This document shows positions 1-53,500 of a stretch of 54,057 bases of DNA, piece by piece. The DNA comes from a virus. Each line of letters begins with the position of its first letter. The first letter of the stretch is position 1. The notes beneath the pieces are model-generated. The model searched no databases, had not been told where the DNA came from, and worked only from the letters and a program-made list of their open reading frames with translations. The position numbers and the translations under genes were made by a program. The stretch lies in the IMG/VR virus record IMGVR_UViG_3300048588_000062; one strand, given 5' to 3'.

Positions 1-3000
1 TCCACCGCGATGGCCGGTGACCTGTACATGACGGTGGACAGTGAGAACCGGGTGCTCATCAACCGCATCGGGTTCTCCATGCCGGACGAGACCCAGCGCA
101 CGGAACTGCTGACCGCCTGGGCGGAGCCGGCCGGCGGCAACGCGGTCATTGATCTGCGGATCGCGTTCGGCCCGAGCACACCGGAGAATCTGCAGACCGT
201 TCCTCCCCCGTTCTTCATCGACAGCCAGGAGTACACCCGTGACGGGCTGACGGTGCAGGGCACGTACAACCTGTTCCGCAACATGAAGATCACCTACGAG
301 GGGCAGGGCGGTAAGACCACCACGTCTCCGGTGCAGGACGGGCTGCGCGTGTCGCACGCGCTGTCCGACAACGGGGTGGGTGTGTCGTCGATGGTGTCGA
401 CCAACACCAGCGGGGACAAGAGTGTCGTCAAGGGTCTGGTGACGAACTTCGCGGACCTGTTCATGATGACCGGCGTGGACTTCCGTCACCTGATGGTCGA
501 TTACTTCTACGGCCCGAGCAAGAACGGCCCGCTGACCAACCGGCCCGAGGACGACTTCGAGGCCAAGTGGACCACCGTGCAGGTGTTCCTCGATCGCTGG
601 TCGAAGCTCGAGTCGGACATGACGGCCACTCAGGTCGCCAAGATGTTGGACTTCCAGAACGAGACGGTGGCCGCGTTGCAGCAGTCCAACGAGATCGGTG
701 CGGCCCTGTACACCACGGACTGGCTGCCGCGGATCGCGCAGCAGGGGTCGACGGTCACCCCGCAGGACCGGGTCGCGCACATCCTGCTGATGACACTGCT
801 GATCCCCGGCATCACCCCGAACATGGTGATGAGCAACCCCGGTCTGCTGTCCGTAAAGGATCCGAAGGACAAGACGTTGCAGATCCGCCGGCTGCCACCG
901 GTCATGACGCAGGCCTTCAACGATGTGTCCATGCCGGAGATGCGGCAAATGCTGATCGACTGGGCAAACGAGTCGATGTCGACGCACGTCGACAGCAACG
1001 GCGACACGTACCGCAGTGCCTGGTTCGATTCGACATTCCGCTTCAACGTGGTGATGGAGCAGGTCGATCCGAACGGGGACATCCAGCAGATGGTGCGGCG
1101 GGGCTACGCGCAGCTCGAGACGCTGGTGGCCTCGGACGAGAACCCGGTGACATTGGCCTTCGCGCACAAGAACTCCCGCTCGATGTCGATGCACAACGCC
1201 CGTGTCGCCGCGGCTCAGGGTGGCTCGGTGGTGATCGAGTCCAAGCCGTTGACCAAGGACAACACCCCGATCCCGACGGTGATCGACGAGGTGTACGGCG
1301 ACAACACGGTGATCCGGTTCGACGAGGACCAGACCGTGCTGTGGGATCTGGTGACCCGGATCATGCCGGACACCGGCCCGGTCAGCCCTGCCAAGTACAT
1401 GACGCCGATGGAGGGTGTCCACTACAAGGAGTCGGTCAAGGAACAGATCGTCTACCAGCAGCCGGTGGACAAGGACGGCTGGGACGGGACTGCGGTCGTC
1501 GAGGCGATCAAGTTCCTGAAGTACCTGAACATGGACTCCCGCAGGGATCTGATCGAGGTGGACTATCTGGTGCGCCAGTGGTACGGAGCGCCTGGTCCTC
1601 GGGAGGATCAGAAGTCCGACTGGATCGAACAGATCACGGAGAAGGACTACCTCGAAGCGGTCACCGCGATGATGACCAACGTGGAGAAGAAGATGCACCC
1701 GCTGCACAACGGGATGGTCCCGTTGGAGCATTCGGCGTTTTGGACGAAGCTGTACAAGGCGCAGCAGGGTGCGAGGAAGCCGTGGGCGCCGCTACGCAAG
1801 AACGGCCGGCGCAAGCGGATCGCGGCCTACACGCTGGACGAGTGGACGACCACCCTGCTGGGTCAGGTCTTCGACTCGTACAACGAGTTCCAGGCCATCT
1901 ACCGCACCGCACTGGACGGGTTCTGGCGCACGTACCAGGGCATCACGCCGACGTTCGCCGAGACGCTTGTCTCACTGGACAAGTCGCTGTCGCTGAAACT
2001 GCTCGACCCCGACACGAACCGGCAGTACCTGTCGATCGACCCGAGCGTCCGTGCGCTGATGCACGACCCGCCGATCTACGAGTCGATGAAACTGAACTGG
2101 CGGACCCTGTCCGGCCATGACCCGGTGGTGGACCGGGACGCGATGGACGGGGTGACCGAGTCCAGCTGGCGTCACTACGACGAGAAGCGCAAGGCGTGGA
2201 TACGCAAGAACGGTGTGACCAAGCAGCAGAAGACGTCGATGATCGACTATGCGCGGCAGGGTGCCACGTACCAGGAGTCGGTCAAGACGACCAACTCGTT
2301 CTTCCGCAACGTGTACCACGTCTCGATCGTGAACCGGCTGTTCAACCCGGCACTGTGGACCAGCGCCATGTTCGAGGTGTTCTTCTACAACCAGCTCGAG
2401 AAGGTCACCGATGTCGTGGCCGGGACCGACACCGGTTGGCGCGGCAAGATGATGGCGGCGGCCAGTGAGACCCCGCTGGGCAAACTGATGGGTCTGACTC
2501 CTCGGTACACCGTGGCGGACTACGACCCGTTGGAGCGGATCATCAAGCGGCTGGGTTCCTCGGTGGAGTGGGCCGGTGAGGTGTTCGGCGAGATCACGTT
2601 CTCCACGATGGTCGAACCGGGGGCGCACATCGACGAGGAGGGTCAGCTCGTCTACGGCGCGTCCGGTCGCTTCGGCCGGCTGTTGGAACGCATGGCCACG
2701 GGCACGGCCCGGACGATGAACGACCCGCGGCTGGGTATGCGGCAGACCTCGGCGGCACGACGGTACATCGGGGCTGCCCTCGAGTACCTGGAGATGACGA
2801 ACAACCTGATTCCGCTGGAGACGCTGGCCACGCTGATCGAGCAGGATCCCCTGTGGCTGCAGAAGAACTTCCCCGAGACAGGACCAGGCCCTCACCGTAT
2901 GGGCCTGAACGCTGTGGCGCATATCCGGTCGACGAAGAACTCCGCACTGGCGAAGGGGATCATGTCACCGATCGACACGTTGACGAACGCGGAGAACGTG

Positions 3001-5181
3001 ATCGTCAACGGCATCGGCTACGCCTTGAAGATCCCCTTCGCGTTCACCCGGTTCAACGCCACCACGTTCATGAACCTGACCGGTCTGTCCGGTATGGACC
3101 AGGCGGTGGCGATGATGCTGGGCGGCCGGCAGAAACCGGCGTTCATGCGCAAGGTCGGCGCGTTCTCCCGAGGCGAGAACTACAAGCCTGACACGGTGGA
3201 CACCATCAACATGGATGACGTCATTGAAACCCTGGACCTGTCGCGACTGTTCCTGCGCGGACTGGTGACCCAGACCGGTCTGATGGCGATGGGGTTCCTC
3301 GGCGCCAACCTGTTCAGCTTGGGAGGGGAGACGGACGAGGAACGGCGGCGGCGTAAGATCGCGCAGTTCCTGGATCTCCCCCAGGTCTACGATCCGCGGG
3401 AACTGCAGAACGACTTCCGTCAGGCCGACGCGATCTTCGTGGACAACATCCCGGTGCTCAACCGCATCTTCTACAACGAGGACACCGGGCGCTCAACGAT
3501 CGTGCCGCACTGGATGATCCAGCAGTTCACCTCCCCGATCATGGGCATGACACGGTTCTTCGAGACCGGTGACGTGCGCAACATCGCGTGGGGGTTCCTC
3601 GATGCGATCTCGGTGCTGCCCACTTCGGCGATCCGGTTGTGGCACGACGCCGACCTGACAGCCACCTTGCTGATGCAGGACGCGCAGGCGCTCGCCGGGG
3701 AGAACGCCGATGTCGCCAGGGATCGCGCGATGTGGACGGTCATCAACGTGGTCGGGTTGTACGAGCGGGCCCTGGTGGAGAACCAGTTCATCAACGCGCT
3801 GCGCAATGCCGGCGACCCGCTCGACCGCAACCCGTACGCGGTTCCCGACACCACCAAGTTGGGGCAGGTCATCAAGATCGACGGTGAGCCGGTCAGCACC
3901 GATGCGCTCAAGGCTTACGTCTCCGATCGCAACGGCCAGCCGCAGGCCGGTGTCGGATACGACACCCGCACCGGGTGGAACGCGGCGCTCCACCAGTACG
4001 CCGAGAACAACCTGATGGCCGCTCTGGGGCTGTCGCTGCTCTCCGGTCAGCCCAACAGCGACAGCACCTTCTTCCGGGAGAACATGGTTCCCCGTGGGCG
4101 CGAAGTCCCGGTCGAGCGGACTGTCCGCAAAGATGCGGAGGCCATTCTGCTCGCCCGGTGGAAGGGTGCCGGCGGTATGCCCTTCATGACCAAAGAGGAG
4201 ATCATCCGGGTCATCAAGGCGCGGGAGGAGGGGGCCGGCCGCTGGTGGAAGCAGGACCAGGTCGAGGCCGAGGCCGACGCGGTGTGGAAGGCGATGAAGA
4301 ACGACAACGCCACGCCGACCTTCATCGACAAGAACTCCCGCGAGATCCTGAACGACCCTGGTGCCACCGGCATCATCAAGTCGTTGATGGCCGGAGTCGT
4401 GGACTTCAGTGACCCGGCGTTGCAGGGCATCTACATCACCCAGGAGATGCGCGACCGGATCGGTCAGCAGTGGCTGGAAGAGCTGGTGCAGGAAGGTGTC
4501 GACTACGGGTTGTCGTACGAGTCGGCGCAGTACCGGGCACGACGGTTCTGGTACGGCGACCCCACTCGACCGGAGACTCCGGGGCTGCGGGAGTTGCTGT
4601 ACTCCAAGCAGATCCCCGACAGGCCGACGGCGAACTACACCCAGCTCAACGTGCGGTACACGATCGGCCCGGACGGAAAGCCGTGGGCCACACCGTACGC
4701 CCGTAACTCGTTCCTCGGGACGATCCTTCCGGTCCCCACCGGCATCAAGCCGGCGGCACCGGGGATGCGCCTGGACGAGCGTGGCAACTCGGTGGACGAG
4801 GTGCGCGGCATCAACACCGGCCTGGCCGCGCTGAAACCCAACCTGGTCGAGAGCCAGGTCGAGGCCAATGACAAGCCGTTGGAGCGGGCGCTGGCGAAAC
4901 GGTACACACCGTCGCAGGCCGAACGCGGCAACTCCTATGGCGGGTTCCGCCGAGGCTACTACCGCAGCGGCGGCTGGGGTGGCGGTGGCGGCTGGGGTGG
5001 CTACAGCAGTAGCGGCGGTGGCGGTGCGTACTTCACCCGCACGAACCCCTACCCGCGCAGGTACGGCCCGAACCCCAACGGGATTCCGGCGATCAACTCC
5101 AACACGCCGTACGTGCGGCGTGCCAGCATTCGGCGAGAACGGTTCTCGTCTGAACGAGGAAGGCTGAAGCAATGGCAGTAG
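1..5181 (+). CDS. Giant virion-type protein, C-terminal part. It continues 44568..54057 through the contig junction; the full ORF is 14,544 nt / 4,847 aa.
   Basis: The frame is open from base 1 (TCC ACC GCG ATG ...). Bases 1-127 equal 53931-54057, and base 1 and base 53931 are both first codon positions of the frame opened by ATG 44568. Stop TAG is at 5179-5181. GC3 is uniformly high. A Gly/Tyr/Arg-rich tail lies at 4936-5033. Confidence 0.85.
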   Translation, partial: STAMAGDLYMTVDSENRVLINRIGFSMPDETQRTELLTAWAEPAGGNAVIDLRIAFGPSTPENLQTVPPPFFIDSQEYTRDGLTVQGTYNLFRNMKITYEGQGGKTTTSPVQDGLRVSHALSDNGVGVSSMVSTNTSGDKSVVKGLVTNFADLFMMTGVDFRHLMVDYFYGPSKNGPLTNRPEDDFEAKWTTVQVFLDRWSKLESDMTATQVAKMLDFQNETVAALQQSNEIGAALYTTDWLPRIAQQGSTVTPQDRVAHILLMTLLIPGITPNMVMSNPGLLSVKDPKDKTLQIRRLPPVMTQAFNDVSMPEMRQMLIDWANESMSTHVDSNGDTYRSAWFDSTFRFNVVMEQVDPNGDIQQMVRRGYAQLETLVASDENPVTLAFAHKNSRSMSMHNARVAAAQGGSVVIESKPLTKDNTPIPTVIDEVYGDNTVIRFDEDQTVLWDLVTRIMPDTGPVSPAKYMTPMEGVHYKESVKEQIVYQQPVDKDGWDGTAVVEAIKFLKYLNMDSRRDLIEVDYLVRQWYGAPGPREDQKSDWIEQITEKDYLEAVTAMMTNVEKKMHPLHNGMVPLEHSAFWTKLYKAQQGARKPWAPLRKNGRRKRIAAYTLDEWTTTLLGQVFDSYNEFQAIYRTALDGFWRTYQGITPTFAETLVSLDKSLSLKLLDPDTNRQYLSIDPSVRALMHDPPIYESMKLNWRTLSGHDPVVDRDAMDGVTESSWRHYDEKRKAWIRKNGVTKQQKTSMIDYARQGATYQESVKTTNSFFRNVYHVSIVNRLFNPALWTSAMFEVFFYNQLEKVTDVVAGTDTGWRGKMMAAASETPLGKLMGLTPRYTVADYDPLERIIKRLGSSVEWAGEVFGEITFSTMVEPGAHIDEEGQLVYGASGRFGRLLERMATGTARTMNDPRLGMRQTSAARRYIGAALEYLEMTNNLIPLETLATLIEQDPLWLQKNFPETGPGPHRMGLNAVAHIRSTKNSALAKGIMSPIDTLTNAENVIVNGIGYALKIPFAFTRFNATTFMNLTGLSGMDQAVAMMLGGRQKPAFMRKVGAFSRGENYKPDTVDTINMDDVIETLDLSRLFLRGLVTQTGLMAMGFLGANLFSLGGETDEERRRRKIAQFLDLPQVYDPRELQNDFRQADAIFVDNIPVLNRIFYNEDTGRSTIVPHWMIQQFTSPIMGMTRFFETGDVRNIAWGFLDAISVLPTSAIRLWHDADLTATLLMQDAQALAGENADVARDRAMWTVINVVGLYERALVENQFINALRNAGDPLDRNPYAVPDTTKLGQVIKIDGEPVSTDALKAYVSDRNGQPQAGVGYDTRTGWNAALHQYAENNLMAALGLSLLSGQPNSDSTFFRENMVPRGREVPVERTVRKDAEAILLARWKGAGGMPFMTKEEIIRVIKAREEGAGRWWKQDQVEAEADAVWKAMKNDNATPTFIDKNSREILNDPGATGIIKSLMAGVVDFSDPALQGIYITQEMRDRIGQQWLEELVQEGVDYGLSYESAQYRARRFWYGDPTRPETPGLRELLYSKQIPDRPTANYTQLNVRYTIGPDGKPWATPYARNSFLGTILPVPTGIKPAAPGMRLDERGNSVDEVRGINTGLAALKPNLVESQVEANDKPLERALAKRYTPSQAERGNSYGGFRRGYYRSGGWGGGGGWGGYSSSGGGGAYFTRTNPYPRRYGPNPNGIPAINSNTPYVRRASIRRERFSSERGRLKQWQ

Positions 5182-9512: not shown

Positions 9513-9866
9513 ATGCCGAACATTGATGCCAGACCTCAGATCGTCGACATCGACCACTACGCAGGGGACACCCTTACCATCCATGTGAAGATCGCCCCCG
9601 AGCTGATCGGAGATCGGACGTTCTTCGCGCAGGTGCGGTCCAAGCGAGACAGCCAACGCCTGGACGCCTCGTTCCAGGTGCGCGTGGAATCCTGGGGCGC
9701 GGACCTGATCCTGCTGCACGAGGACTGTCAACGTCTGGCACGACGCGGGAAGTATGTCGGCTTCTGGGATGTGCAACTGTCCGAGGCCGACGGGTCGGAC
9801 CCGGTGGTGACCCTCGCCAACGGTGAACTGCGTATCCACCCCGATGTGACGAGGTTGCCCTCATGA
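9513..9866 (+). CDS. Small Ig-like tail-associated protein
   Basis: I prefer the start at ATG 9513, preceded by GAGGAGGA, over the longer track start at 9402. The sequence [12 protein letters not shown] ... YVGFWDVQL ... [10 protein letters not shown] resembles the same Ig-like fold as the preceding gene. Confidence 0.45.
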
Positions 9867-12250
9867 GCGAAGATCCGCTGCTCGTTCAGTCCGATGCGAC
9901 GATGAACGTCACCCCGCCGCCGGAAATCACCATCACCGTCAACGAGATGGGACCGCGCGGTCCGAAGGGCGACCCCGGCCCGAAGGGTGACCCCGGCACG
10001 GACGGCGACCCCGGCCCGAAGGGTGACCCCGGCCCGAAGGGGAATCCCGGTGATCCCGGTGAGGACGGCGCGCCCGGCCCGGCCGGTGAACGCGGGCCCC
10101 GCGGCTACACCGGGCCTCCGTCGTATCCGGCCACCTACCCCGATGACCTGATGGTCGGCGGCAACATCAGCGCCTGGGCTGCGGCCAACGGTGAAGACCT
10201 CGGCATCCAGAAGATCCTGGCCGACATCGACCGGCTCAACCTGAACACGGTCACGCTGCCCATCCAGATCGACGCGAACTCCGTGACCTCCTCTGTGGCC
10301 CTGGTGGACGAGGCCTCGCTGGCGTACGCCAAACGGATCAGGGCCGCACTGCCTGACCATGTAAAGGTCATCGTCGAGCCGTACCCGTTCATCGACGACG
10401 GCAACCAGTCGGAGACGTTGTGGAACCCCGACGACATGGATGTCTGGTTCTCCTACTGGCGGGAGGCGTGTGTCCGACTGGCCCGGGAGTTTCCCGGCGA
10501 GTACGCCATGTACCTGTCCTCGAACATGCCGTTCATGGAGACGGAGTGGGAACGCTGGGCCACACTGATCCAGGCGGTGCGCGGCTGGTGGACCGGGCTG
10601 CTCGCGTTCCGCACCAACTGGTGGTATACCGCACACTTCGATCCGCCATCGCAGCAGGCGTTCGCCGACCGCATCAACAACCCGCTGTGGCAGTACGTGG
10701 ACGTGCTGGTGGTCAGCGGCTACTTTGAGCTGACCGACTCTCTTGACCCCGGTGTCGACGAGCTGCGGGCCTGCCTGCATTCGACCACCATCTACGACCG
10801 GCAGCAGGACATCTACGACGAGGTGCTGCAGTTCAGTGAACGCTGGCAGAAACCGCTGTGGTTCGGGGAGCTGGCGGTGTCGCACTGGACGAACGGTGCC
10901 ACCGCGCCGTGGGATCCCGACACCGGGGACGTCTACTCGCAGATGTTGCAGCGCAACTTCTACCTGGCGTACGTCTCCGAGTTCATCAACATGGACCGGT
11001 GGCTGGGCTTCAGCATCTTCAACATCGGCCACCCGTGGTCCGACTCCGGCTACATCCTGGCGTCGGCCGCAGCCGACTACATCGCCGGGATCGCACCGGG
11101 CGAGGTGTTCGGGGTGGCCGGGCCTCGAGGTCCGGAAGGGCCGTCGGCGTACGCCGTGGCGCTGGCCAACGGTTTCGTCGGTACTGAGGCGCAGTGGCTT
11201 GAGTCACTGAAAGCCTCGGGAATGCGTATTGATGTGACCGCTTACGGGGCCAAAGGCGACGGTGTCAGCGACGACACCGCTGCCATTCAGGCTGTGCTGG
11301 ATTCCGCCCCAGCTGGATCCACGGTGTACTTCCCGGCTGGCGTTTATCTGACCACTTCCCGGCTGACGATCAAGCAGAGCGGCACCACGTTGCGCGGGGC
11401 CGGGGGCGGGTCGGTGATCCGGTTGAAAGCCGGCCGCACCGCCAACACCGACATGCTGTACGCGAAAGACCTCAGCCGGATCACGGTGGCCGACCTGACC
11501 ATCGACGCTGATCGGGTCGGCAATCCTGGCCCTGCCGTCTACACCACTTGCATTCAGTTCTCCGGTGGCACCGATCATCGGTTGACGAACCTCACCGTGA
11601 CTGGCGGGAACATCGAGGGCGTCTACGTGCACAACGCCGGGGAGGTGCTGATCGACAATGTGATCGCCACCCAGAACGGCATCTGGCGTGAGGACGCATC
11701 CGGCATCCACCTGGACACCTGCTGGAACGCGGTGCTGTCGAACATCGTGGCCGATGCCAACGGGTTCCACGGGATCATCCTCACCGCCTGTAACAACGTG
11801 GCGGTCAACAACGCGGTGCTCAGCGACAACGGGTGGAACGGGCTGATGTACCAGTTCGCCTGCACCTACTGCACCGCCGCGAACATCCACGCCAACGGCA
11901 ACTTCCGTGGCGTGTATCTGCGGGACTGGTCGAACCTGTGCCAGTTCACCAACATCAGTGGCAAGAGCAACCATGTCGGGGCTGTGGTGCTGGACAACGC
12001 CCAAGACATTTCCGTCAGAGGTTTGATCGCCACAGACAGCATGGAGTACGGGGTGAGTCTGAAAGGCGAGTGGGACACGCTGCGTCTGTCTGAGGCACTG
12101 TTCAAGAACAACGCCCTGGGAGAGATGGAGATTGTTCACTCGACCGCAGGGCTGACTCTTGGGGATTCGGCACAGAAGGCGCAGTTGAAGGCACTGGTCG
12201 CATCAGCAACAGACTTCACGGACTTCAAAGCAAAGGTGGCAGCATGGTGA
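9863..12250 (+). CDS. Tailspike or fibre: collagen-like repeats, a TIM-barrel glycoside-hydrolase-like domain and a pectate-lyase-type beta-helix
   Basis: ATGA overlap with the upstream gene. Gly-X-Y run [52 protein letters not shown]. The central region has VIVEPYP and PLWFGELAV, resembling GH5-type acid/base and nucleophile Glu contexts. A second short collagen run is GPRGPEGP. The C-terminal [40 protein letters not shown] is a classic Pectate_lyase_3 start. Confidence 0.75.
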
Positions 12251-22904: not shown

Positions 22905-23771
22905 ATGTCGGCGCAACGCAAGCCAGGGCTGTACCGCCAGCTCAGAGTCACAGGACGGCCTCTGACCCGCTCCTACAGCGACTACACGACAGAGGTGCTG
23001 GAGGCCGAACTCCAGGCGGCGATCAGCGAGGGGTTCGTCGACGCAATCCCGGAAGACCCCGGCGCGACCCAGCAGAGGCCCGCAGCGGCGCGAAAGATCG
23101 AACCCGAGCTTTCACCCCCGGCCGAGTTCTTCGGCCTTCCTGAGCCTGCTCCTGCCCCGGCACCGCAGCCTGTCGCGGCACAGGCCGACGTACCGCAGAC
23201 CCCGTGGGGGCCGGAGGACCAGCCCGCCCCTGCTCCCCGGCAGCAGCCCGCCACCGTTCCGGTGTCCTCGCAGCCCGATCCCGAGGAACTGCCCGGTCAA
23301 CGGCTCAACACCGCAGCCCCCGACGAGGTGATCCGCGTTGACGAGCTGGGCCGCAAGTGGCACCAGGAGGAAGTGCGTAAGCCCGCCTTCCCGAAACCCC
23401 GCGGCCGGCGCGTGCTGCAATACACCGAGACAGGTGTCGCCACTCAGACCGTGCAGAACGGTGAGTACGTGGAGACCTTCGAGGTCGCCGGCAACCAGCC
23501 GCAGCGTCCCGCCCAGGTGAAGATCACGTTGCCGTCCTACCAGGTCGGTATCTACACCGACCCGCGTTTCCCGTTCAAGATCCACTGCTATGACGGACGG
23601 GAAGGCTTCGACCTGCAGGATGTGCAGGCCTACTTCGGCGGGGCCGAGCTGGTGCCCGCCAGTGTCAAGCGCGTCTACATCGAGAACGCGCTGTGCTACG
23701 ACATCCGCTCTGTGATCCGCACGATCGAATCCGAATACCGCCAACTCCAACTGATGGGAAAGATCAAGTGA
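22905..23771 (+). CDS. Hypothetical Pro-rich protein (288 aa)
   Basis: SD (AGGAG) 5 nt upstream. GC3 checked by hand and is high throughout. Confidence 0.65.
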   Translation: MSAQRKPGLYRQLRVTGRPLTRSYSDYTTEVLEAELQAAISEGFVDAIPEDPGATQQRPAAARKIEPELSPPAEFFGLPEPAPAPAPQPVAAQADVPQTPWGPEDQPAPAPRQQPATVPVSSQPDPEELPGQRLNTAAPDEVIRVDELGRKWHQEEVRKPAFPKPRGRRVLQYTETGVATQTVQNGEYVETFEVAGNQPQRPAQVKITLPSYQVGIYTDPRFPFKIHCYDGREGFDLQDVQAYFGGAELVPASVKRVYIENALCYDIRSVIRTIESEYRQLQLMGKIK

Positions 23772-24334
23772 CCGACACCCCCGAGACCTCCAACCTGACT
23801 GTCGAGGACATCCTGGCCGAGGCCCAGGACGCGGCCTACCACAGTCTGCTGGAGACCTGGCAGCGGATTCTCCAGCCGTCAGGTGAGGTCCGCATGGAGC
23901 CGATCACCCCGCAGTGGTCGTTGCGGATCATCAACAAGTTCCCGCAGATCGGGTTCGCCGACATGCCGGAGTTCCGGGACGCCTTCTACGATCTGCTCGA
24001 GGAGATGTACGACGGTCTGGTCTCCGAGATCGACTCCGATGACGAGTGCTTCAACGTCGACAGCCCGGAGGAGGACGTCGAGCGCAACGGCCACCACTAC
24101 CTCAACGTGCTGTTCACCTGGCAGAAGATCATCCTCAGCCGGGAACTGGACTGGAACTGTGAGTCCACCACGGCCGCCATCGACGTCGCTGTGATGTCCG
24201 AGGTCCACCGCATGTTCTTCGACGGCACCGGGATCACTGCGCTGCTCGACCAGATCGGCTTCCAGTTCACCGAGGACAACCAGCAGCAGCTCACTGCCGA
24301 ACTGCAGGAGCTCAAGAACACCTGGGTGGGCTGA
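23768..24334 (+). CDS. Hypothetical acidic protein (188 aa)
   Basis: GTGA overlap start at 23768; the longer track start at 23693 overlaps the upstream gene. Strongly acidic sequence. Confidence 0.55.
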   Translation: MTDTPETSNLTVEDILAEAQDAAYHSLLETWQRILQPSGEVRMEPITPQWSLRIINKFPQIGFADMPEFRDAFYDLLEEMYDGLVSEIDSDDECFNVDSPEEDVERNGHHYLNVLFTWQKIILSRELDWNCESTTAAIDVAVMSEVHRMFFDGTGITALLDQIGFQFTEDNQQQLTAELQELKNTWVG

Positions 24335-24337
24335 TGA

Positions 24338-24748
24338 GTGTCACGCCTGATGACGAGCGTGAGGCGGTTGAACTCCCGAATCACGGAGATCTGGCTTTCA
24401 CTGCTCTTATGGATGCACTCGCGCCCGACGCGCAAGCAGAAACGCCAGCAGGAACAGGAGCGCCTGCTCCGGCTGGTGGAGGAGCAGAGCCTGCGCAACC
24501 AGCGAATCCTGCTGTGGGAGGCGCTGCAACCGGTGTCGCAGGCGATGCACCGGCTGGATCAGAACCAGCAGCAGAACAGCCGGCAACACCAGCAACAGCT
24601 GGAGCAGCTGGAGGAGATGCTGATGGAAGTGCTGAACAGTCTGCAGCCGTCAGCACAGGAGCAGATCTTCCCCCGGATTGGACCGCATCTGCCGACGATC
24701 TCGTCCCACGGTTCGGGGAACTCGGCAAGGCTCTCGAAACCAACCTGA
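24338..24748 (+). CDS. Basic coiled-coil protein in the frame supported by codon bias. It is either the N-terminal part of a -1 frameshift fusion or a separate gene.
   Basis: GTG 24338 (or ATG 24350). For 24422-24670, this frame has GC3 of 72/83 codons (87%) by hand count. The overlapping track frame (24334..) has 22/83 (27%). Confidence 0.6.
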   Translation: MSRLMTSVRRLNSRITEIWLSLLLWMHSRPTRKQKRQQEQERLLRLVEEQSLRNQRILLWEALQPVSQAMHRLDQNQQQNSRQHQQQLEQLEEMLMEVLNSLQPSAQEQIFPRIGPHLPTISSHGSGNSARLSKPT

Positions 24749-25374
24749 CGAAAGCCGTCCAGCAGGAGGCGTTCGACGAGACCCGCAACGACTACGAGCG
24801 GTACTTCCAGGCGTTGGAAACCCACCCGCGTCTGCTCGTCGGCACCGAGGTTCCCGCGATCGGCCGGGACGGGATGGAACGGCTGAAGGACTCCGCGGAC
24901 GCCAAGGAGTGGCAGGAGGCGGTACGCGCCCTGCTCGGCCAGGAGGTGGAGGCACGGGCCCAGGAGAAACTGGAAGCCGACCGCAGCACCCTGGACACCT
25001 TGCACAGTTCGATCGGGTTGTTCGCCAGTAACAAGGATCTGATCCCCGGCACCCGCGACTTCAACAAGACGTTGGCCGACGAGTTCGCCAGGACCGTGCA
25101 GCCGTACGAGATCCGCAGCGACGGCAAGCTCATCGGCTACAGCGTGCCGGTGCAGCCGATCATCGACGTGTTGCGCAAGCAGACACAGACCCCGACCACG
25201 GTAGCCTCGGGGAAGGAGCAAACCGCCAGTCCTGCTCCTGCACAGCCTGCGGCGGGCCAGACTCCTGCTGATCCGCCGCAGGCTGGTATCCCCACGAAAG
25301 CGGGCAGCAGTGCGGAGAAGGAGGATTACTCCGTGCTCTTCGGCACAATAGGATTGCCGAACCTGCAGATCTGA
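24673..25374 (+). CDS. C-terminal module of the scaffold-like protein. Its frame is that of track ORF 24334..25374, and it has no start codon of its own before 24814.
   Basis: This frame only gains genome-typical GC3 (37/45 codons for 24679-24813) from about 24670 onward. It contains no ATG, GTG or TTG between 24517 and 24813. The sequence is coiled-coil rich and sits close to the terminase, so a scaffold role is a guess. Confidence 0.5.
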   Translation, partial: PDWTASADDLVPRFGELGKALETNLTKAVQQEAFDETRNDYERYFQALETHPRLLVGTEVPAIGRDGMERLKDSADAKEWQEAVRALLGQEVEARAQEKLEADRSTLDTLHSSIGLFASNKDLIPGTRDFNKTLADEFARTVQPYEIRSDGKLIGYSVPVQPIIDVLRKQTQTPTTVASGKEQTASPAPAQPAAGQTPADPPQAGIPTKAGSSAEKEDYSVLFGTIGLPNLQI

Positions 25375-25387
25375 AGGGATCACCGCC

Positions 25388-26320
25388 ATGACCACTCCGC
25401 ACGCCGCCACGGGCTACAGCAATCCTGCCCGGAAATCACCGGCCGAGACCGTTGCGCAGAACTCCGCCGAGGTCGCCAGTGCCCGCACCGGGTATCACCG
25501 CAGTTTCCAGTCCAGCGTGCAGCAGTACGCAGAGCTGACCGGAAGCGCCGAACGTGTCACTGTGTACGACACGTTCGACACCAACCAGCTGTCCACGCTA
25601 TGGCCGAACTCCTATGGAGGGGTGACGGTCAGCAACGGCGCAGCCAGCGTCCCGGTGCTGGACGCCTACGGCGCAGCACTGTGGGCCGGAGACCTGCCGG
25701 CGTTCAGCGAGGTGGAGTTCGTGTTCGGCGACGTCGACCTGGTCGACTGGGACGGCGAGGTCGGCGTGACCTGCCGGGCCGCCGACAATAGCGCGCTGTT
25801 CGGGATTCGCGGCTGGGGCCCCGGCGGCGGCACGAACCTGGAAGCGAAGGTCAACGGCCTGGGGGTGTACACCACAGCTGTCCCCGGTGCGAACTGGAAG
25901 TGGGTGAGGATCGTGCACACCCTTACCGAGATCCAGTTCCTGATCTCCGCCGACGGGGATGTCTGGACCACCTTCCACGTCGAGGAGGAAGTGGTCGCCA
26001 AGGACGCCACCCAGTTCCTCGTGAACCCCGGACGCTGGGATGGTGCCGGCGGGATCGTGGAGATCGAGCAGGTCGGGTTCGTGGCCACCGCTACCCGTGC
26101 TGCCGTGCAGCAGGCCGGGTTCGCGGCCACTGCTGCCAGTGCTCCGGCGCCGCAGGACGACCCGCCTCCCACCATCAACGCCACCATCGCGCAGTTGATG
26201 GAGTGGGTCGGCGACAATCCGGCGCGCGCGCAGATCGTGCTGGACGCGGAGAACGCCAAGGACGCTCCGCGCTCCACCCTGGTCAGCCAGCTCGAAGATC
26301 TGATCAGCTCATCTGAATAG
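25388..26320 (+). CDS. Hypothetical protein with a jelly-roll-like core and a C-terminal HeH-like helix pair
   Basis: 310 aa with high GC3. The C-terminal TIAQLMEWVGDNPARAQIVLDAENAKDAPRSTLVSQLEDLI resembles the HeH motif often seen in actinophage head-associated proteins. Confidence 0.55.
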   Translation: MTTPHAATGYSNPARKSPAETVAQNSAEVASARTGYHRSFQSSVQQYAELTGSAERVTVYDTFDTNQLSTLWPNSYGGVTVSNGAASVPVLDAYGAALWAGDLPAFSEVEFVFGDVDLVDWDGEVGVTCRAADNSALFGIRGWGPGGGTNLEAKVNGLGVYTTAVPGANWKWVRIVHTLTEIQFLISADGDVWTTFHVEEEVVAKDATQFLVNPGRWDGAGGIVEIEQVGFVATATRAAVQQAGFAATAASAPAPQDDPPPTINATIAQLMEWVGDNPARAQIVLDAENAKDAPRSTLVSQLEDLISSSE

Positions 26321-44567: not shown

Positions 44568-47500
44568 ATGGCTGACTTCTCGAAGGGCCCATCGGACTAC
44601 TGGAAGAACCAGGCGAGGAATCCGGCTGCTCCGATGGGGTTGCGGCAGGCGTCGGCGTCCACCGCGCAGGATCTTCAGGAGTGGGACGGTCAGGGTCCGA
44701 AGCCGTGGACCCCGGAGTCGATGCTGGATGTGGCGTCGTCGTGGTACACGGGGGCGAACTCCCAGGGCATGGAGAACGGGTGGAACACCGAGTTCATGCA
44801 GAAGGCGTTCGACCAGATGAACCGGTACTACGCGCTCGCCGCCGAGCAGCAGGACCAGTCGGTGTGGTTCACCCAGTTCGATCCGACGAAGAACCCGACC
44901 GCCACGGGTGTGGTGATGTGGGACGACCCGCAGCGGGGGCTGAACTTTGGTGACGTGTTCGTCGACGGGGTGAAGCAGGAGGGGCAGAACCTGTACCAGG
45001 CGTTCGACAAGCGCACCGCCGACGTGATGATGGCGGAGTTCATGTTGGACGGCCCGGAGAAGACCCGGCTGTTCGAGCAGATCCCGAGGGGCAACCCGGA
45101 CGCGGTGGGCAACCGGGTGCAGGAGTTGCGCACGCAGAACTCGGAGACCGCGGCCACGGCGATCACCAAGGGGGAGTTCAAGGCGCAGACCGACGCCAGG
45201 GAGCTGGAGTACCAGCAGGGCTGGCAGGATCCCGCGCTGATCGCGGGTGGCGCGGCCGGCGGTGCGTTGATGGGTGCCGGGATCGGTTCGTTCGGTGGCC
45301 CGGTCGGAACCCTGATCGGTGGCGCGGTGGGCGGCATCGTCGGCGGTGTGTCGTCGTGGTTGAACCAGGACGAGCTGCGTGACCTGGCCGCCCGGTCGGC
45401 GGTGGTGTCGCAGATGGCGAACGAGAGGTATCAGGGCACGGATCAGGTCGGCGCACTCGGTGTCACGATCAAGGAGTTCTCCGGGTTGGGGATGCGTCTG
45501 ATCTCCCCGATGTCGAACACGGTGCGCGGGATCGAGGATGCCCGGCGCGGTGACGTCGGTGACATGACCGCCGAGTGGTACGAGTTCACACCCGACGGTG
45601 ACCGGCAGCGGTCCAACTGGGTGACCGGGCTGGACCTGGCGGCCAGTGTCGCCGACTCGGCGTTGCAGTTCTCCGGCGGTGCCGGGCGTGCGGCGTACAT
45701 GGGGGTGATGGGTGCCACCACGGCCGGTGGGGTCGCAGGCATGATCCCCGGTGAGGGGTTCAACTACTCGACCGGTGAGTTCGATGCGTACGAGAATGCC
45801 GGCGAGTGGATGGCCGCGGCCGGCAGTGTGGCGATCGACGCGGTGCAGATGGGTGGCGCCGGGGCGTTCGTGCGGGCCGCACGCAACTCCCGGGTCGCCA
45901 ACGGGATGCCGAGCCGGGCCTCGGACGAACTGCTGGGTGTGGTGCCCCCGAACGCCCGTGGCCAGTTGCGGCAGTGGGCCGGGGACAAGGCCGCCGCCAT
46001 CACGAGCGCCACCGGGGATGCGGTGGAGAAGGTGGCGGGCAAACGGACGCGGGAGTTCCTGTCCAGCCGGTTCACCGACGAGGGTGAGGTGATCGCGGGC
46101 CGTAGGTACATCCGGGACGCCGACGGCAACATGATGAAGCCGCGGCTGGCGTTGGAGATGCTGGCCCCCAGCGAGATGCTGCGCGCGATCCCGGTCAGCT
46201 ACCGGGCGCGGACCCGCGCCGCCGATCCGATGAACGTCACCCCGGATGACATGTACAACGCGGCACTCGAGCTCACCCGCTACAACGGGCAGTTCCGCAA
46301 CGCGGTGATCATGGGGTACGCGGAAGGCACCGAGGAGTTGGTGCAGGGGATCCTGGATCCTCTGGCGTACAGCGAGAACATCAACCCCGGTCAGGTGTTG
46401 GAGTCGGCGATGTACGGGTTTGCCGGCGGGTTCGGCATGGGCATGGGGTCGATGAGCCGCACGGCGAACTACCAGCAGCAGGTGGACGCCAGGGCCCGTG
46501 TGAACTGGGCGATCCGCAGCGGCAAGTCGATGCCGAACGATGAGCAGTGGGCGCAGATCAAGGAGGGGATGCGCCCGGTGGACATCGAGAAGCTGGCGAT
46601 GCCGACTCCTGAGGAGGACGAGCAGCTGGCCGGGCTGCGCGAGGTGGCGACCGAGGCGATGCGCCAGTCCGGGTTCACCTCCCCGATTGCGATGGCGGTG
46701 TTCGATTCGCTGCGGGAGGGTGCCTGGGAGAAGTTCCTGGCCGGGAAGAACACGGTCGGCGGGCAGTCCCGCACCCTGTTCGGGTCCAGCGACAACAAGA
46801 CGATCAACGTGGGTGGCGCGGTCGAGGAGTTGGAGATGGCGCCGAACTCCGCGGTGATGTCGTTCGACACCACGATCGACACGCTGGTGCGCAACGCCGA
46901 GGGGCTGCGCACGAAGATGACTGCGGCGATGCAGGGCAAGGCGAAGTACGAGGCGATCCAGCAGAACGCCGCCTCGACCCAGGAGCAGAAGGACGAGGCG
47001 GCCCGGATGGTCGCCAAGTACGACGCGCAGATCCTCGACCTGGGGACCGGGGTGCAGGTCGCCGACATGATGGTGGGCACCCGGGACAACCCGGCGATCC
47101 TGCTGCAGATGTACCAGGACTTCCTCGACGACCCGGATGCGCAGTCGAAGATCCAGCGGATCAAGGACTTCAACGCCAAGGTCAAGTCGATGTACGAGGG
47201 CCAGTGGGAGAACAACGGCCAGCTGCTCCCCGGTGAGATGCAGGACGGCGCGAAGAAACTGGTCGAGACCCTGATGACCCGCCATCCGCTGATCGACACC
47301 GGTTCCTGGGGTGTGTTCGTCCCGATGGTGTCGGTGGAGTTGTCACGGGCCAACGCCCACGGTGCGGTGTTCATGCACCAGGCGACGTTGAAGGCGATGG
47401 GTGCCGACCACGACGGGGACAACGCGGTGCAGGCGCAGGAGCAGTATTTCACCCCGGAGCAGTTGCGGAACCTGCGCCGGGGCGTGCAGTACCTGCAGCA

Positions 47501-50500
47501 GGAGAACGAGCAGTTCACCTACGACCCGAAGAACCCGTCAGCGCCGAAGACGAAGTGGAAGGTGGTGGCCGACCCGCCGGACGCGGAGGCCACGTTCATC
47601 CGGAACTTCTCCGACCCGATGCTGACGACCAAGCAGAAGGACATCGTCACCCAGGGCCTGGTCCGGCTGATGAGTCGGCTGCGTGACCGGTACGCGACCA
47701 ACGGCCCGTTCGACTACTCCACGATGGACAACCTGTTGTCGGACTTCGAGGCGAACGTCCGGGCCGGTAACGTGAACGCTCGGGTGCGTCTGGTCGAGGC
47801 GATGTTCGAGGCGAAGGCCCAGGAGCTGTTCGCCATGTCGGACACCACGAACATCCCGGAGTTCTTGCAGATCTGGTCGATGGTGAACCTCGAGTGGGAT
47901 GCGATCCAGCAGAACTTCGCCTACGACTTCTTCCTCAACCGGGAGCAGATGACGACCACCCCGGATGTTCCGGCCCGGCCGGAGGACGACGCCGCGTTGG
48001 AGACCAGGGCCCGCCGGCAGGCGGTGGTGCATGGGCACGCGCTGGCGATGCTGGGCACCGCGGACCCGGTGCGCGCGGCACAGTACCTGCACTACTCGGC
48101 ACTGCTGAAGTCGGCGGTCAGCCTGTCGCACCTCGACCCGGAGACACTGTCCCGCTCGGATCAGCGTCTCGACGAGTTCACCCGTGCGTACGCCCAGATC
48201 GGAACCGGGGACTCCCGTTCCGACATGGACAAGTTCGTCGGGGTGAACGCGATCGAGAGTCGTGTCATCGCAATGCTGGAAGGGATGCTGGACTCCGCCG
48301 ACCTCGGGAACATGTACCCGGATCAGTCGGCTGATCTGAAGGATCTGCTGCGCACCGGGCGCAAGACCGAACTGATGCTGATGCTGGCGAATGTCCGGGT
48401 GCCCGACATGATCGTCGACGAGTCGAACGACATCACGTTCGGCAACCGGGACGTGACGCTGCTGCAGTTGCTGCTGCGCAAGTCGTTGGAGATCGAGAAG
48501 AACCTGAACCGGGACATGGATCAGGACAAGGATCTGATCCGCAAGATCCGCAAGTTGGAGCGGTTGACCCGCCCGGAGACGGATGGGCACAGCAGCACGG
48601 CGGCGCTGGCCACGATGGAGGTGTTCGGCAACACCCCGCTGGCCACGCTGGTCGGGGATGCGTCGATGTACGTCGGCCCGCAGATGACGTTGGCCCAGTA
48701 CCAGAAGAAACTGCTGGCGATGAGTTCGACGCGGCGGCGCGAGGAGCTGGCGCTGCTCAAGCGGGCGCCGCACTACTTCCTGCACAAGACCGTCGGCGAC
48801 CCGCCGTGGTACTTGGAGCAGTTGTACGCGCAGAACGTGGCCGGCCAGACCCGAGGTGCCGAGGTCAACGCCTTCACCATGCTGGTGGATGCGTTGCAGA
48901 CCGCGACCAGTGTGGAGAACGAGCAGCGTCGGCACCAGTCGAATCGCGACATCGAGGCGTTCGAGTCCGGCCTGTTGAAGTTGAGCGAGGTGTTGGACGC
49001 CTGGAACGCCACGCACGGTGCGGACATCCCCGGATCGGCCGACGGCAGTTCGGATCGGGTGGAGATCCTGCGGCACATGCTGCGGTACGAGCCGCGGGCC
49101 GCGCAGATCATCGCCGAGGTGATCCCGCAGGAGTCACGCCTGGGTGTGATCGAGGAGCGTGACGGCCAGGTCACGATGCAGAACTGGGTGGAGCAGGTGC
49201 TCACCGAGAAGGACGAGAAGAAGGCGGCCGTCCAGTTCTACGTGTACTCGAAGCTGGCCGAGTGGAACGTGCTACAGGGGACGCTGGATGTGACGGCGCT
49301 GCACGAGGAGGTGCGCCGCATCCAGGCCGAGGAGCGCGACGACAAGGGCAACCGGTTGTCCAGGGAGCAGGCCTACGCCCGCATCGACCTGGAACAGTTC
49401 CGGTCCCGTGTCCGGCTGGGCCAGGTGAAGTCCCGGTTCCTGCAGACCTTGTGGCACCTGAACATGATCCCCGACGGTGGCCGGGAGTTGCACCGGTTCC
49501 TGGCCACGATCCTCGACGCCGATGATCTGTCGTCGATGTTCGACAGGATCAACGAGGAGCCGATGTGGTTGCAGGGCCGGGCCAAGCTGTACGCCTTCAA
49601 CGACAGTGTCGAGGCGTTCGAGTTGAACCCGAACGACGTGTGGACCACCGATGCCACCGGTACCGAGTACCGGGAGGCGTTGGGTGAGTTCTCGGAGAGC
49701 ATGAGTTCGCTGGCCGACCGCACCGCCGAGCAGGCCGCGAACGCCGAGCAGAACCTGCGCGCCGTCAAGGCGATGCAGGAGGTGCTGCGCAAGCTCCTCA
49801 ACGGGGAGCCGCTGGGCGACGGCTTCGATCAGCAGGGCGCTCTATTGCTGCAGCAGTTGGAGAAGGCGATCCAGGTGGCCCGGGAGTTCCCGGATGCGAT
49901 CGGCCGGCGGGCCAGGGACCAGGCGATGGCCGCGTTCCAGACCATGTACATCCGGATGCACGACAAGGGCAAGGCCGATCCGCGTATCGCCCCGCTGGGG
50001 GCCGCTGCGATGACCGCGGACACCATCGGGTTCGGCGACCCGTTGCAGTTGGAGATGGGTGCGATCACCAGTTTCAGCTGGTCGGACGTTTCCTCGAACC
50101 TGTCGGCTCTGGCCAAGGGCCCGGTGCGCATCATGCTGGACAACGGCAAGGTGCTGGACATCGACATGTCCACCTTGGAGGGCGCGGTCGAGATGCTGGC
50201 CGACCCGTTGACGCAGCCGTTTGCGATGGCGGTGCTGTTCCCCACGGTGAGGGATGTGAACTCCCAGAACACTGTGTCCACGTACCAGAGCACGATGGCG
50301 CGGTCCAAGCCGGACCCGAACTCCCCGAAGGGGGAGGGCAACCTGGCTCAGATGTTGGCGGAGGTGAACTTCGCCAACCTGTTCAACCCGCCGAACCAGG
50401 AGTCGAGGGTCGATCAGGCGTACCGCTACATCGGGCATGTCGAGGCGTACATCCGTCGGGCGGCGTTGGACACGGCCACCACCGCACCGGACACGGACAT

Positions 50501-53500
50501 CGAACTCGAGGAGCTGGAGTTCGGGTACTATCCGATCCAGAACATGCTCAACTCGTTCCTCGTGGCGTACCAGACGACGGCCGGCCGCGGCCGGACCGAC
50601 GAGCAGAACGAGAAGATCCGCGACGAGCTGGTGGTCGCGGTGGCCGACATGCTGAAGATGTTGAGCACGAAGTCGGACTTCGCCCTGGACACGATCAAGC
50701 AGGAACTGGTGGCCGTATTGCAGGCCAGGTTCTGGCAGGACGACACGATGGTCCAGGTCGTGCTGGACCGTGAAGATCCGCTCAGTGATGCGGTGGCCGA
50801 CTACATGATGAAGGCCATCGAAGGGGTGTTCATCCGTGAGAAGAACGAGGCCACCGCACGGTTCCAGGCCGCACTGAACCAGGGTGTTCCGCAGGCGACC
50901 GCCGTGGCGCAGTACCAGCAGGAACTGGCCGACATCACGACCCGTGAGGACGAGTTCAACTCGTCGGGCTCGTTGCAGACGATGCCGTACCTGGCACGGG
51001 ATTTCAGCACCGTGGGCCAGATGTTCGCCATGACGCACGATCCTGCCGACGCGGTGCGCGACATGCAGGCCAAGGTGCTGCTCGTGTCATTCCTCGGCAA
51101 GCAGGATCGGATCAACAAACTCCAAGGGGTGAAGGCCGCCTTCACCATCGAGGACCATGCTGGTGCGGAGACCGATGAGTCGTTCGCCGCGCTGATCGAC
51201 AAGTTCCGCGAGACCGTGTACGACAAGGACTTCGACATCGCGGACATGGCGAACTCCGACCCGTTGCAGCCGAACGAGTGGAATCAGCTGCGGTTGTGGG
51301 CCACGCAGCAGTTCATCTCGGAACGGGTCGTCGCCTCCTCGGCGGACATGAGCATGGCGGCGATCATCCTCGGCAAGAACGAGGATGAGATCCGCCGGCT
51401 GTACGACACGTCGTGGAGTTATCTGGTCGACACCGCGTTCGACAAGCGAACACTGGCCGCTGCCCGCAGGCTCGCGGAACTGGCGCAGCACCGGGACTCG
51501 ATGGATTCGGCCCGGGTGCGGGACACGATCCTCAACCGGCTGTTCCCGGATCGGCTGCTCGGCACCTGGAACGACCGGGTTCCGATCGAGACGCTGAAGG
51601 CGAAGAAGGTTCTGGACGGCGCGGCCGTCAAGGAGTCCGTGGCCGCCGCCGGTATCGCCCCGAAGGAGATGGATGCGTGGATCGCCGGGGAGCAGACCAC
51701 GTTCCTGAAGCCGACCGCCGAACACTTCACGGAGGCGTCGTTGGTCGTGGCGGACGGTTCCGACATCCAGCAGGTGATGGACGTCCTCAACGATGCGATG
51801 CTCGGGTTGAAGACCCACAACCACTTCGTGCGGGCTGTCGAGCTGATCCCCACCGACACCGCGCTGCCGCCGGAGAACCTGTTCGGGATCGTCACCGAGG
51901 TCGACGACACCAACGACGAGACGGAGAACAGCGGGCTGCAGCTGTTCAAATTGGAGCAGTTGCTCGACCACATGATGCGCCGGGTGGAACAGGGCGAGGA
52001 TTCCTCGCAGACCGCCCCGAGTCTGGTTCAAGGGTTCACTCTGCGCATCGAGTACGTCGATGTGGACAAGCAGCCGGACGGTAGGGACTGGGCGAACAAC
52101 CGCTTCTTCGAGGGCCGGGGCCGCAACGCCACGGGCCGTAACGACCTCGGCCCGATCACCGCGCTGTACTTCGGCACCGGAGGCCTGTCGAAACTGTGGC
52201 AGCAGTCCCCGCTGGACTCGCTGACCAAGAAGGGCCAGGCGTTCCGGGCGTTCCTGCAGACCGCACTGGATCATGTGCGCAACTCGATGGAGAACAAGAC
52301 CACGGTCACCGAGGTGATGCAGGAGAAGACGCTGCACCTGATGGGCCGGCGCTTCGGTGGCGTGATGTTGCAGTGGGACGACATGCCGGCGATCTACAAG
52401 TACGTGAAGTCCCGGCATGTCATGGTCGGCCGCAACCGCAACACCGGCAAGAAGGAGGTGTGGCGGGTCGAGAAGTACATGGAGATGGAGGCCCGTGCCG
52501 CCACCGACCCCAACTTCGTGTTCGAGTTGGAAGCCCTTGACGGCAGCGGCGGCCCCGCGGAACTGGTGGCCCTGTCGCACAAGGTGGCGCAGACGTTGAA
52601 GGGCCGCCCCGGTGTCGGTGGTGTGGCGCAGGATACGCAGTATCCGTACACGAACGTCTCGGACGCCGACCCGTTCCCGTCGTACGACATGGGCCGGTTG
52701 GAGCAGCTGGGCCTCGCCGAGATCGGGGAGAAGGCGAAGGCGAAGGAGTCCCCGGCCGGACGGCACGGGTTGCTGACCAAGGCGTACGGGAAGGGCGGGC
52801 CGACCCGCAAGGGCGTGCGCTCCCTGTACCAGGCACGGATCGACAGGCTGATCACCGAGGAGCGCCTGCCCCAGCTCGAGGTGCGCAGCAACTACCGCAG
52901 TCAGGACCAGGGCAAGCTGGACATCGCGGAGACGCACAAGTGGGGGATGAAGGTCGTCGGCGAGATGCTGCGGCTGGAGGCTCTGGGTGAACGGCTGAAC
53001 AAGTTGGGCATCCCGAACATGCTGATGAAGGATTTGATGCAGCTCGAATCCTCGGAGCGGCTGTACCACCGGCTGTTCAAAGACCTCGACCCCAACTCGA
53101 TGGTGTGGCAGCACAAGCAGGACGAGACCAGCGGTGACCCGACACGCGGCCTGATCAGCCCGGTGGAGGTGCGGGAAGGATTCCCGAACACGATCCAGCC
53201 GGTGATCGGCGACATCGTGGTGCTGGACCTGACCTCGTTCATGAACAACACCGGGCAGAACGAGCAGGAGGCCATCGACCAGGCGAAGCAGGTCATCGAC
53301 GTCTACGTACGCAAGGGGGTGTCCATCGTCCTCGGTGGCACGACCAGCGTGAACGGTGTGCGCCAGGCGCTCGTCGAGCATCTGACGTTCGGCACGATGG
53401 GCTACAAGCGCAAGGGCATGTCCGGGCACATCTTCGAGCCGATCAGTGACGACTGGGATGTGGACCTCACCGAGCAGGCACTGGACTCCACACTGTCCGA

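Follow-up and report, generated by a model that had tools for sequence, protein, structure and literature searches.

The stretch of DNA analysed here, referred to as the window, is the 54,057-nucleotide IMG/VR virus record IMGVR_UViG_3300048588_000062, a complete, circularly assembled phage genome with a G+C content of 63%. On the plus strand, which carries all of the features of the locus described below, positions 24334..25374 hold an open reading frame (ORF) of 346 amino acids, gene X, which starts with ATG, ends with TGA and defines frame 0. A second ORF, gene Y (24338..24748), lies wholly within X in the +1 frame; it encodes 136 amino acids from GTG 24338, or 132 amino acids from ATG 24350, and it too ends with TGA. 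It is likely that 24334-24748 carries two genes in two frames that are translated independently from one mRNA. The overlap of ~410 nucleotides is conserved from the Eekayvirinae and Burrovirus to many uncultured relatives (Microbacterium/Arthrobacter-type podophages). Overlapping genes were one of three options raised by a first-pass annotation of this DNA to account for a switch in codon bias within X, the others being a programmed frameshift and an indel, and it is this option that is supported, as both frames are open and selected across relatives. The comparisons described here draw on 80 related loci fetched from IMG/VR, of which 63 are distinct; subsets of 58, 61 or 62 loci were used in some tests.

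Gene X is organized as an N-terminal helix motif, an acidic disordered linker, a folded helical C-domain and a disordered tail with a conserved C-terminal motif. Its AlphaFold model consists of a short helix at residues 18-29, disorder at residues 31-111, a confident helical domain at residues 120-285 and a disordered tail. X has more than 300 homologues; those that are full length are 41-59% identical and share the N-motif LPxxGDxAFxxLMDALAPE in the 24334 frame, while identity between X and its Eekayvirinae homologues is only 31-35%. In the alignment, the N-motif is followed by a variable linker of Ala, Gly, Pro, Thr, Glu and Asp with indels and then by the well-conserved C-domain and C-terminal tail, with the N- and C-terminal motifs in the same frame in every case. 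The N-motif of the window (residues 13-32, ELPNHGDLAFTALMDALAPD) spans 24370..24429 and is under purifying selection in frame 0, since the differences per codon position among close pairs (0.086/0.073/0.245) have the classic coding pattern. Read in the Y frame, the same bases give ...RITEIWLSLLLWMHS.... The linker (residues 33-110, 24430..24663), which has 8 acidic and 0 basic residues, forms the core of the overlap and is the site where GC3 (the proportion of G or C at third codon positions) is low. It is predicted to be disordered, with a predicted local distance difference test score (pLDDT) of 33-40, and its sequence and length vary among homologues. The C-domain (residues 120-285, 24691..25188) has a mostly helical fold with a pLDDT of 85-95, a GC3 of ~0.9 and normal frame-0 selection. 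The C-terminal tail (residues 313-346, 25270..25371), PQAGIPxKAGSSxEKEDFSxLFGTIGLPNLQI, consists of near-invariant alignment columns.

Gene Y encodes a strongly basic N-terminus followed by a long coiled-coil-type helix. The first-pass annotation held that the 24338 ORF is a genuine coding sequence for a basic coiled coil, and the family-wide open frame and the purifying selection described below bear this out. The Y frame has no stops across the linker in any of 58 distinct loci, whereas the +2 frame has a mean of 3.3 stops, and it is open for 114-221 codons in these loci (114-160 in all except L021). Five cultured phages, MissAmericana, Burro, Araxxi, Alex44 and Fede, likewise have both frames open. 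The N-terminus of the Y family is basic (…RxRRSWTRWSLxR…RRLxRE) and precedes coiled-coil motifs that read LLEALxPLAxALQRxD in one subgroup and QLLLLKELE…HR in another, after which come a variable segment and a C-terminal …LLGLP motif. Two motifs of Y in the window are conserved in the +1 frame. The first comprises residues 56-74 (RILLWEALQPVSQAMHRLD, 24503..24559) and the second residues 91-115 (LEEMLMEVLNSLQPSAQEQIFPRIG, 24608..24682), the end of the latter aligning with the ...LLGLP of most other members. A search with a Y profile found 409 cluster representatives among 1.84 billion proteins, and the best-scoring 150 of the 409 are 73-155 amino acids long. In the five cultured phages named above the profile matches this ORF only (MissAmericana, 5e-19; Burro, 2e-15; Araxxi, 3e-15; Fede, 1e-7; Alex44, 8e-4). 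An [IL]GLP-type motif is conserved near the C-terminus in both the X and the Y families, and the corresponding sites in the window are 24668-24682 (Y ...FPRIG, aligned with the LLGLP of relatives) and 25345-25371 (X ...GTIGLPNLQI). This sharing may be due to chance or may reflect a common docking motif.

Codon bias differs sharply between the two frames. In the 24338 frame, 72 of the 83 codons in 24422-24670 have G or C at the third position, as had been counted in the first-pass annotation; the low GC3 that it reported for the 24334 frame over the same interval is also real, although a recount gives 21/82 codons and not 22/83. The 24334 frame then has a GC3 of 37/45 in 24679-24813, in agreement with the earlier count, and is back to ~0.9 from about 24700. 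Among the ~30 main genes of the genome, 50-codon windows with an in-frame GC3 below 0.5 are found only in codons 1-140 of gene X. The anomaly is family-wide, with GC3 averaging 0.36 in the linker versus 0.91 in the C-domain over 58 distinct loci. The GC3 of the 24338 frame is high partly because the Ala, Gly, Pro, Glu and Asp codons of frame 0 begin with G or C, and what is truly anomalous is how low GC3 is in frame 0, not how high it is in the 24338 frame. The possibility that low GC3 is normal for Ala/Pro/Gly linkers in this genome was rejected, as other Ala/Gly/Pro-rich low-complexity stretches in the window have a GC3 of 0.72-0.82; the controls within the genome were the collagen-like repeats in 9863..12250 and a PAPAP region in 22905..23771. 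The collagen-like Gly-X-Y repeats occupy residues 31-85 of a 795-amino acid protein (9863-12250) that is probably a tail fibre, and their GC3 is 0.80-0.82. A second disordered linker of X (25189-25290) provides a control for the first. Its GC3 is also lowered, to ~0.5-0.7, but no alternative frame is open there and its substitution pattern is normal (0.32/0.19/0.44).

It could be argued from these properties that X is the only gene and that the +1 ORF is a by-product of an Ala/Gly/Pro-rich linker in a high-GC genome. G or C at the first positions of frame-0 codons automatically raises GC3 in the +1 frame, and the +1 frame stays open in 74% of shuffles of the linker codons. A lone gene X would not account for the low GC3 of frame 0, a feature found nowhere else in the genome, and the substitution data and codon choices presented below make it exceedingly unlikely.

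All-against-all conservation profiles of 60 divergent loci were uninformative, as saturation and low-complexity alignment caused composition to dominate, and selection was measured instead on close independent pairs and on motif columns. Over 8 independent close pairs, the substitutions at frame-0 codon positions 1/2/3 number 109/79/72 in the overlap versus 124/82/248 in the C-domain (chi-square p = 2.7e-11). Among the six closest pairs, synonymous differences at four-fold sites of X amount to 25/277 in the linker as against 87/363 in the C-domain (p = 6e-7). The ratio of nonsynonymous to synonymous substitution rates (dN/dS), calculated by the method of Nei and Gojobori (NG86), is 0.02-0.66 for the Y frame of the overlap core in 9 of 11 pairs (0.09 for the window versus locus L086), whereas it is at least 1.1 for frame 0 in the same 9 pairs. 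The relationship is reversed in the C-domain, where dN/dS is 0.03-0.44 for frame 0 and ~0.7 or higher for the +1 frame (undefined in one pair). In the two best Y motifs, compared over 22 loci, many columns have an invariant second and a varying third codon position of the +1 frame. Arg is preserved in these columns through changes between CGN and AGR codons and Leu through changes between CTG and TTG, while in frame 0 the residue may be Ala, Thr, Lys, Glu, Pro, Ser or Gly. If X were the only gene, the reduced synonymous change, the dN/dS values of the +1 frame and the conservation of motifs through synonymous switches of Arg and Leu would all be unexplained.

Frame 0 of the linker is also constrained, though in another manner. 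Arg makes up 0.5% of the residues of the X linker, versus 7.5% expected from the Y protein alone; basic residues fall below expectation in every one of 61 loci, and the linker is also depleted in hydrophobic residues and carries a net negative charge. Judged from these sequences, the X linker is selected for composition and avoidance of stops, not for sequence. Resampling with the X protein fixed and normal codon usage leaves the Y frame open in 27% of cases per locus, and resampling with the Y protein fixed leaves the X frame open in 23%. For each of the two frames, the joint probability of staying open throughout 17 deep clusters is ~1e-12, a figure that is rough because the lineages are related and were treated as partly independent.

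The starts of the two genes lie 4 nucleotides apart in the sequence ATGAGTG (24334..24340), which contains the ATG of X, a TGA in the Y frame and, immediately after this TGA, the GTG of Y. A Shine-Dalgarno-like sequence, GGGTGGG (24324..24330), is located 3 nucleotides before ATG 24334 and 7 nucleotides before GTG 24338 and probably serves both starts. GGAGG-like motifs occur at the equivalent place, a few bases upstream of the starts, in many related loci. The sequence RTGAGTG is kept in most of the 63 distinct loci as well as in MissAmericana and Araxxi, and loci that lack it have an ATG or GTG in the Y frame within a few codons. The TGA of the upstream gene (24332-24334) overlaps the ATG of X in the window and is followed in tandem by the second TGA. 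Readthrough of the upstream TGA into Y was considered and is unlikely given these tandem TGAs and the further upstream stops in other loci.

Codon choice in X is restricted where an alternative codon would affect Y. Ser-2 of X is encoded by AGT in 55 of the 56 cases in which this residue is Ser, whereas AGT accounts for 5.5% of Ser codons elsewhere in these genes; AGT at this position yields the TGA-GTG of the Y frame. The Leu that precedes Met-Asp in the X motif is encoded by CTC or CTT in 56/56 loci and never by CTG or TTG, which together make up 66% of the Leu codons elsewhere in these genes and either of which would create a TGA in the Y frame at this point. The AGT and CTC/CTT choices, like the substitution data, have no explanation if X is the only gene.

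Taken as two genes, X and Y would be expressed by ribosomes choosing between two starts, 4 nucleotides apart, behind one Shine-Dalgarno-like element, a competition in which termination of the upstream gene may also play a part. The codon-bias switch would then be the footprint of selection on Y. The third codon position of X is the second codon position of Y and is for this reason fixed by the residues that Y requires (A or T, giving Gln, Glu or Leu in Y) and not by the preference of the genome for G/C, and X would tolerate the low GC3 because the region is a flexible linker that is constrained only in composition and in the absence of stops.

The reading preferred in the first-pass annotation was a programmed -1 frameshift, in which translation starts at GTG 24338 and slips at a run of five C residues (C5 run, 24670..24674) to give the 136-amino acid product and a fusion of ~345 amino acids. 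Several features that suggested this mechanism are indeed there. The C5 run and a run of four G residues (G4 run, 24715-24718) are present in the sequence, the C5 run would let tRNA-Pro re-pair perfectly one base back, the Y stop lies only ~25 codons beyond it, and the 24334 frame has no ATG, GTG or TTG between GTG 24514 and TTG 24814. A frameshift is nonetheless very improbable, as there is no conserved slippery site and no RNA structure and frame 0 has its own start. Homologues, which the annotation had proposed as a check, conserve the two-frame arrangement (63 distinct loci and five cultured phages) but not the C run, which occurs only in the window and near-identical relatives, is absent from that place in the other 61 loci and is probably incidental. 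In 62 loci, the +1 frame lacks any conserved X XXY YYZ heptamer. The minimum free energy of RNA 24677-24770 is -27.3 kcal/mol versus a shuffle mean of -29.1 (z = +0.54), indicating no stimulatory structure. Among the best-scoring 150 of the 409 Y representatives there is no single-frame fusion and none is longer than 155 amino acids. X also has its own conserved start, a selected N-motif and a linker that is poor in stops and Arg, and a frameshift needs none of these. Low-level slippage may occur in this particular phage, but nothing requires it.

The same homopolymers would fit a sequencing or assembly error in which an indel of 1 nucleotide splits one true frame, an explanation that can be dismissed for practical purposes. 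The sequence at 24670-24674 and 24715-24718 is unchanged in five independent assemblies, which come from different samples and share ~97% identity with the window, and the same arrangement is present in the 63 distinct loci and in five finished genomes of cultured phages. Frame 0 is moreover continuous, which makes an indel unnecessary.

A further alternative is that Y and X are adjacent, non-overlapping genes, with a short X that starts downstream of Y and an upstream part of frame 0 that is untranslated. Gene callers predict a Y of 132 amino acids and a C-terminal gene of 166-186 amino acids in near-identical contigs, many X homologues in databases are ~218 amino acids long, and gp45 and gp46 of Araxxi are annotated as adjacent genes. 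The dN/dS of frame 0, at least 1 in the linker, and a frame-0 stop in one locus (L027) are likewise in keeping with adjacent genes. This arrangement is nevertheless unlikely. The N-motif of frame 0 is under typical coding selection; frame 0 is open in 61/63 loci versus the 23% expected per locus; the composition of frame 0 is far from what the Y protein alone would yield; and X has no conserved internal start, with none at all for 300 nucleotides in the window. Metagenome gene callers systematically shorten X, reporting Y and a truncated X (L086-L090). The records of cultured phages in GenBank vary as well. Only a full-length X, designated a hypothetical protein, is annotated in MissAmericana (gp48), Burro (gp45), Alex44 (gp50) and Fede (gp49). 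In Araxxi (L091, MN062711, 2213-3168), gp45 is an 86-amino acid part of Y and gp46 is a truncated X of 229 amino acids, a split annotation that contrasts with the full-length X of the Burro locus (L082, 2665-3744).

Besides the roughness of the joint probabilities, several points weigh against two overlapping genes. We infer translation of both frames from evolution only. The AlphaFold model of Y is one helix (residues 3-102) with a pLDDT of 92-99 over residues 11-100, but a high score for a lone long helix counts for little by itself. In one subgroup the central part of Y is rich in Pro and Glu and little conserved, and the substitution phases there resemble frame 0 or noise. Locus L027 (IMGVR_UViG_3300009455_000046, ~1424-2427) has a single in-frame stop in the X linker and an intact Y. 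This stop could be a real split of X, the mark of a defective genome or an assembly error, and X may accordingly be dispensable or split in some lineages. Finally, no fold or family match assigns a function to X or Y.

The order in which the two frames arose can be addressed with the codon-usage criterion for the older frame of an overlap (Pavesi et al. 2013; PMC3744397). On the basis of this criterion, we infer that Y is the ancestral frame and that the N-terminal extension of X was overprinted on it de novo. No lineage without the overlap was found that would confirm the ancestry of Y.

With regard to function, searches of Pfam and PHROGs with X, Y and their neighbours identified the large terminase only. 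PDB sequence profiles gave no match for X or Y, Foldseek found no match to Y in the PDB, and for X it found no match in the PDB below E = 2.5. A Foldseek search of BFVD with X returned only its own homologues and a weakly scoring 'scaffolding protein' from an uncultured phage (E = 0.098, probability 0.25). X is not next to the capsid gene in MissAmericana, and neither a scaffold nor a small terminase is annotated in that genome. X and Y lie upstream of the large terminase in MissAmericana and Burro, with a 310-amino acid gene intervening in the window, and this position suggests, with low confidence, a role in virion assembly or DNA packaging. It is conceivable, though doubtful, that X and Y function as a pair, in proportions governed by the competition of their out-of-frame starts, which are 4 nucleotides apart and lie over the stop codon of the upstream gene. 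The basic coiled coil of Y would then act together with the acidic linker or the 'GLP' tail of X, or upon one of them, during capsid assembly or DNA packaging. The overlap would in that case be a device for stoichiometry and co-inheritance, as in Rz/Rz1, and not just a means of compaction, with the N-terminal 110 residues of X having arisen de novo by overprinting on an older Y. Identity of X and Y with the Rz/Rz1 spanins was rejected by eye, as the start of X (MSVTPDDEREAVELPNHGD...) has no hydrophobic stretch or transmembrane domain and Y has no Cys or lipobox.

A megablast search with the region gave no match among cultured phages, and tblastn was needed to find relatives. They comprise 57 Microbacterium phages, with Burro, Araxxi and the Eekayvirinae (cluster EK) among them, and the Arthrobacter phage MissAmericana. 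The cultured relatives are all podoviruses of ~54 kb (PMC7302621), and their hosts are Gram-positive Actinobacteria. The gene order in MissAmericana is nozzle protein, two unknown genes, X/Y and then, directly downstream, the large terminase. The gene upstream of X/Y in the window (23693..24334) encodes 188-213 amino acids depending on the start chosen and is in the same frame as Y. The listed ORFs 22905-23771 and 23693-24334 share 79 nucleotides, an overlap that is probably spurious and due to the start codon chosen in the ORF list; in near-identical contigs the latter has a later start (188 amino acids) and the overlap is 4 nucleotides. The 310-amino acid gene between X and the large terminase (25388-26320) is without a family match. 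It has no counterpart at this place in MissAmericana, and Burro, Alex44 and Fede carry one or two small genes there instead.

The ends of the window carry an exact direct repeat of 127 nucleotides (1-127 and 53931-54057), which is typical of a circular contig from an assembly with k=127, and the unique length of the genome is 53,930 bp once this terminal duplicate is discounted. Removal of the duplicate gives a single ORF of 4,847 amino acids across the junction (44568-54057 continuing 128-5181). This ORF is probably the counterpart of the giant gene of >13 kb described for cluster EK/Burro phages (PMC7302621), which is annotated as 'tape measure protein' in MissAmericana.

The overlap is not mentioned in the description of the cluster EK/Burro phages (PMC7302621) or in phage genome announcements, and a search for literature on overlapping genes in actinobacteriophages returned nothing relevant and no description of this overlap. 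X and Y are a new case within the known class of overprinted overlapping genes. They offer a natural example of overprinting in which either a disordered linker hosts a second gene or a new N-terminal extension was overprinted on an older gene, and it is the frame encoding the disordered segment that has the unusual codon usage. Both X and Y should be annotated, the more so as the GenBank records of sister phages disagree. The existence of cultured SEA-PHAGES isolates makes the question readily testable.

To our knowledge, long out-of-frame overlaps in which both products are selected are rare in tailed double-stranded DNA phages, Rz/Rz1 being the textbook case. The closest analogues of X/Y in layout are the Rz/Rz1 genes of lambda, which are the embedded spanin genes of a tailed double-stranded DNA phage, and the P/C genes of paramyxoviruses. 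As in Rz/Rz1 (see also PMC6139136), a small gene lies wholly within a larger one in the +1 frame on one mRNA of a tailed double-stranded DNA phage. Rz1, however, has a ribosome-binding site of its own and begins midway along Rz, whereas the starts of X and Y are 4 nucleotides apart at the 5' end. X and Y also differ from the spanins in lacking a transmembrane domain and a lipobox or Cys, respectively, and the hosts of the relatives are Gram-positive. The P/C genes of Sendai and measles viruses belong to eukaryotic RNA viruses and are expressed by leaky scanning. They resemble X/Y in that the start of a +1 ORF follows the main start by a few nucleotides and the ORF overlaps a disordered N-terminal part of the longer protein, with the choice of start setting the ratio of products. 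Initiation at X/Y would in contrast be prokaryotic, by way of a Shine-Dalgarno sequence and termination-reinitiation, and there is no sequence relationship. The D/E and A/B/K genes of phiX174 are similarly out-of-frame overlaps on the same strand with selection on both products, but they occur in tiny single-stranded DNA genomes under strong size constraint, whereas compaction is a weak argument for a double-stranded DNA genome of 54 kb. The comparison with T7 10A/10B and with lambda G/GT, whose frameshift is cited in PMC7302621, holds insofar as a shared N-terminus would result and a short ORF in the upstream frame ends just past the junction. Unlike these systems, X/Y has no conserved slippery site or stimulatory structure, and its downstream frame begins at a start of its own and encodes a conserved N-terminus. 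The S105/S107 starts of lambda, finally, are also a few nucleotides apart behind one ribosome-binding region and set a ratio of products, but they are in the same frame and give near-identical proteins, whereas the starts of X and Y are out of frame and give unrelated proteins.

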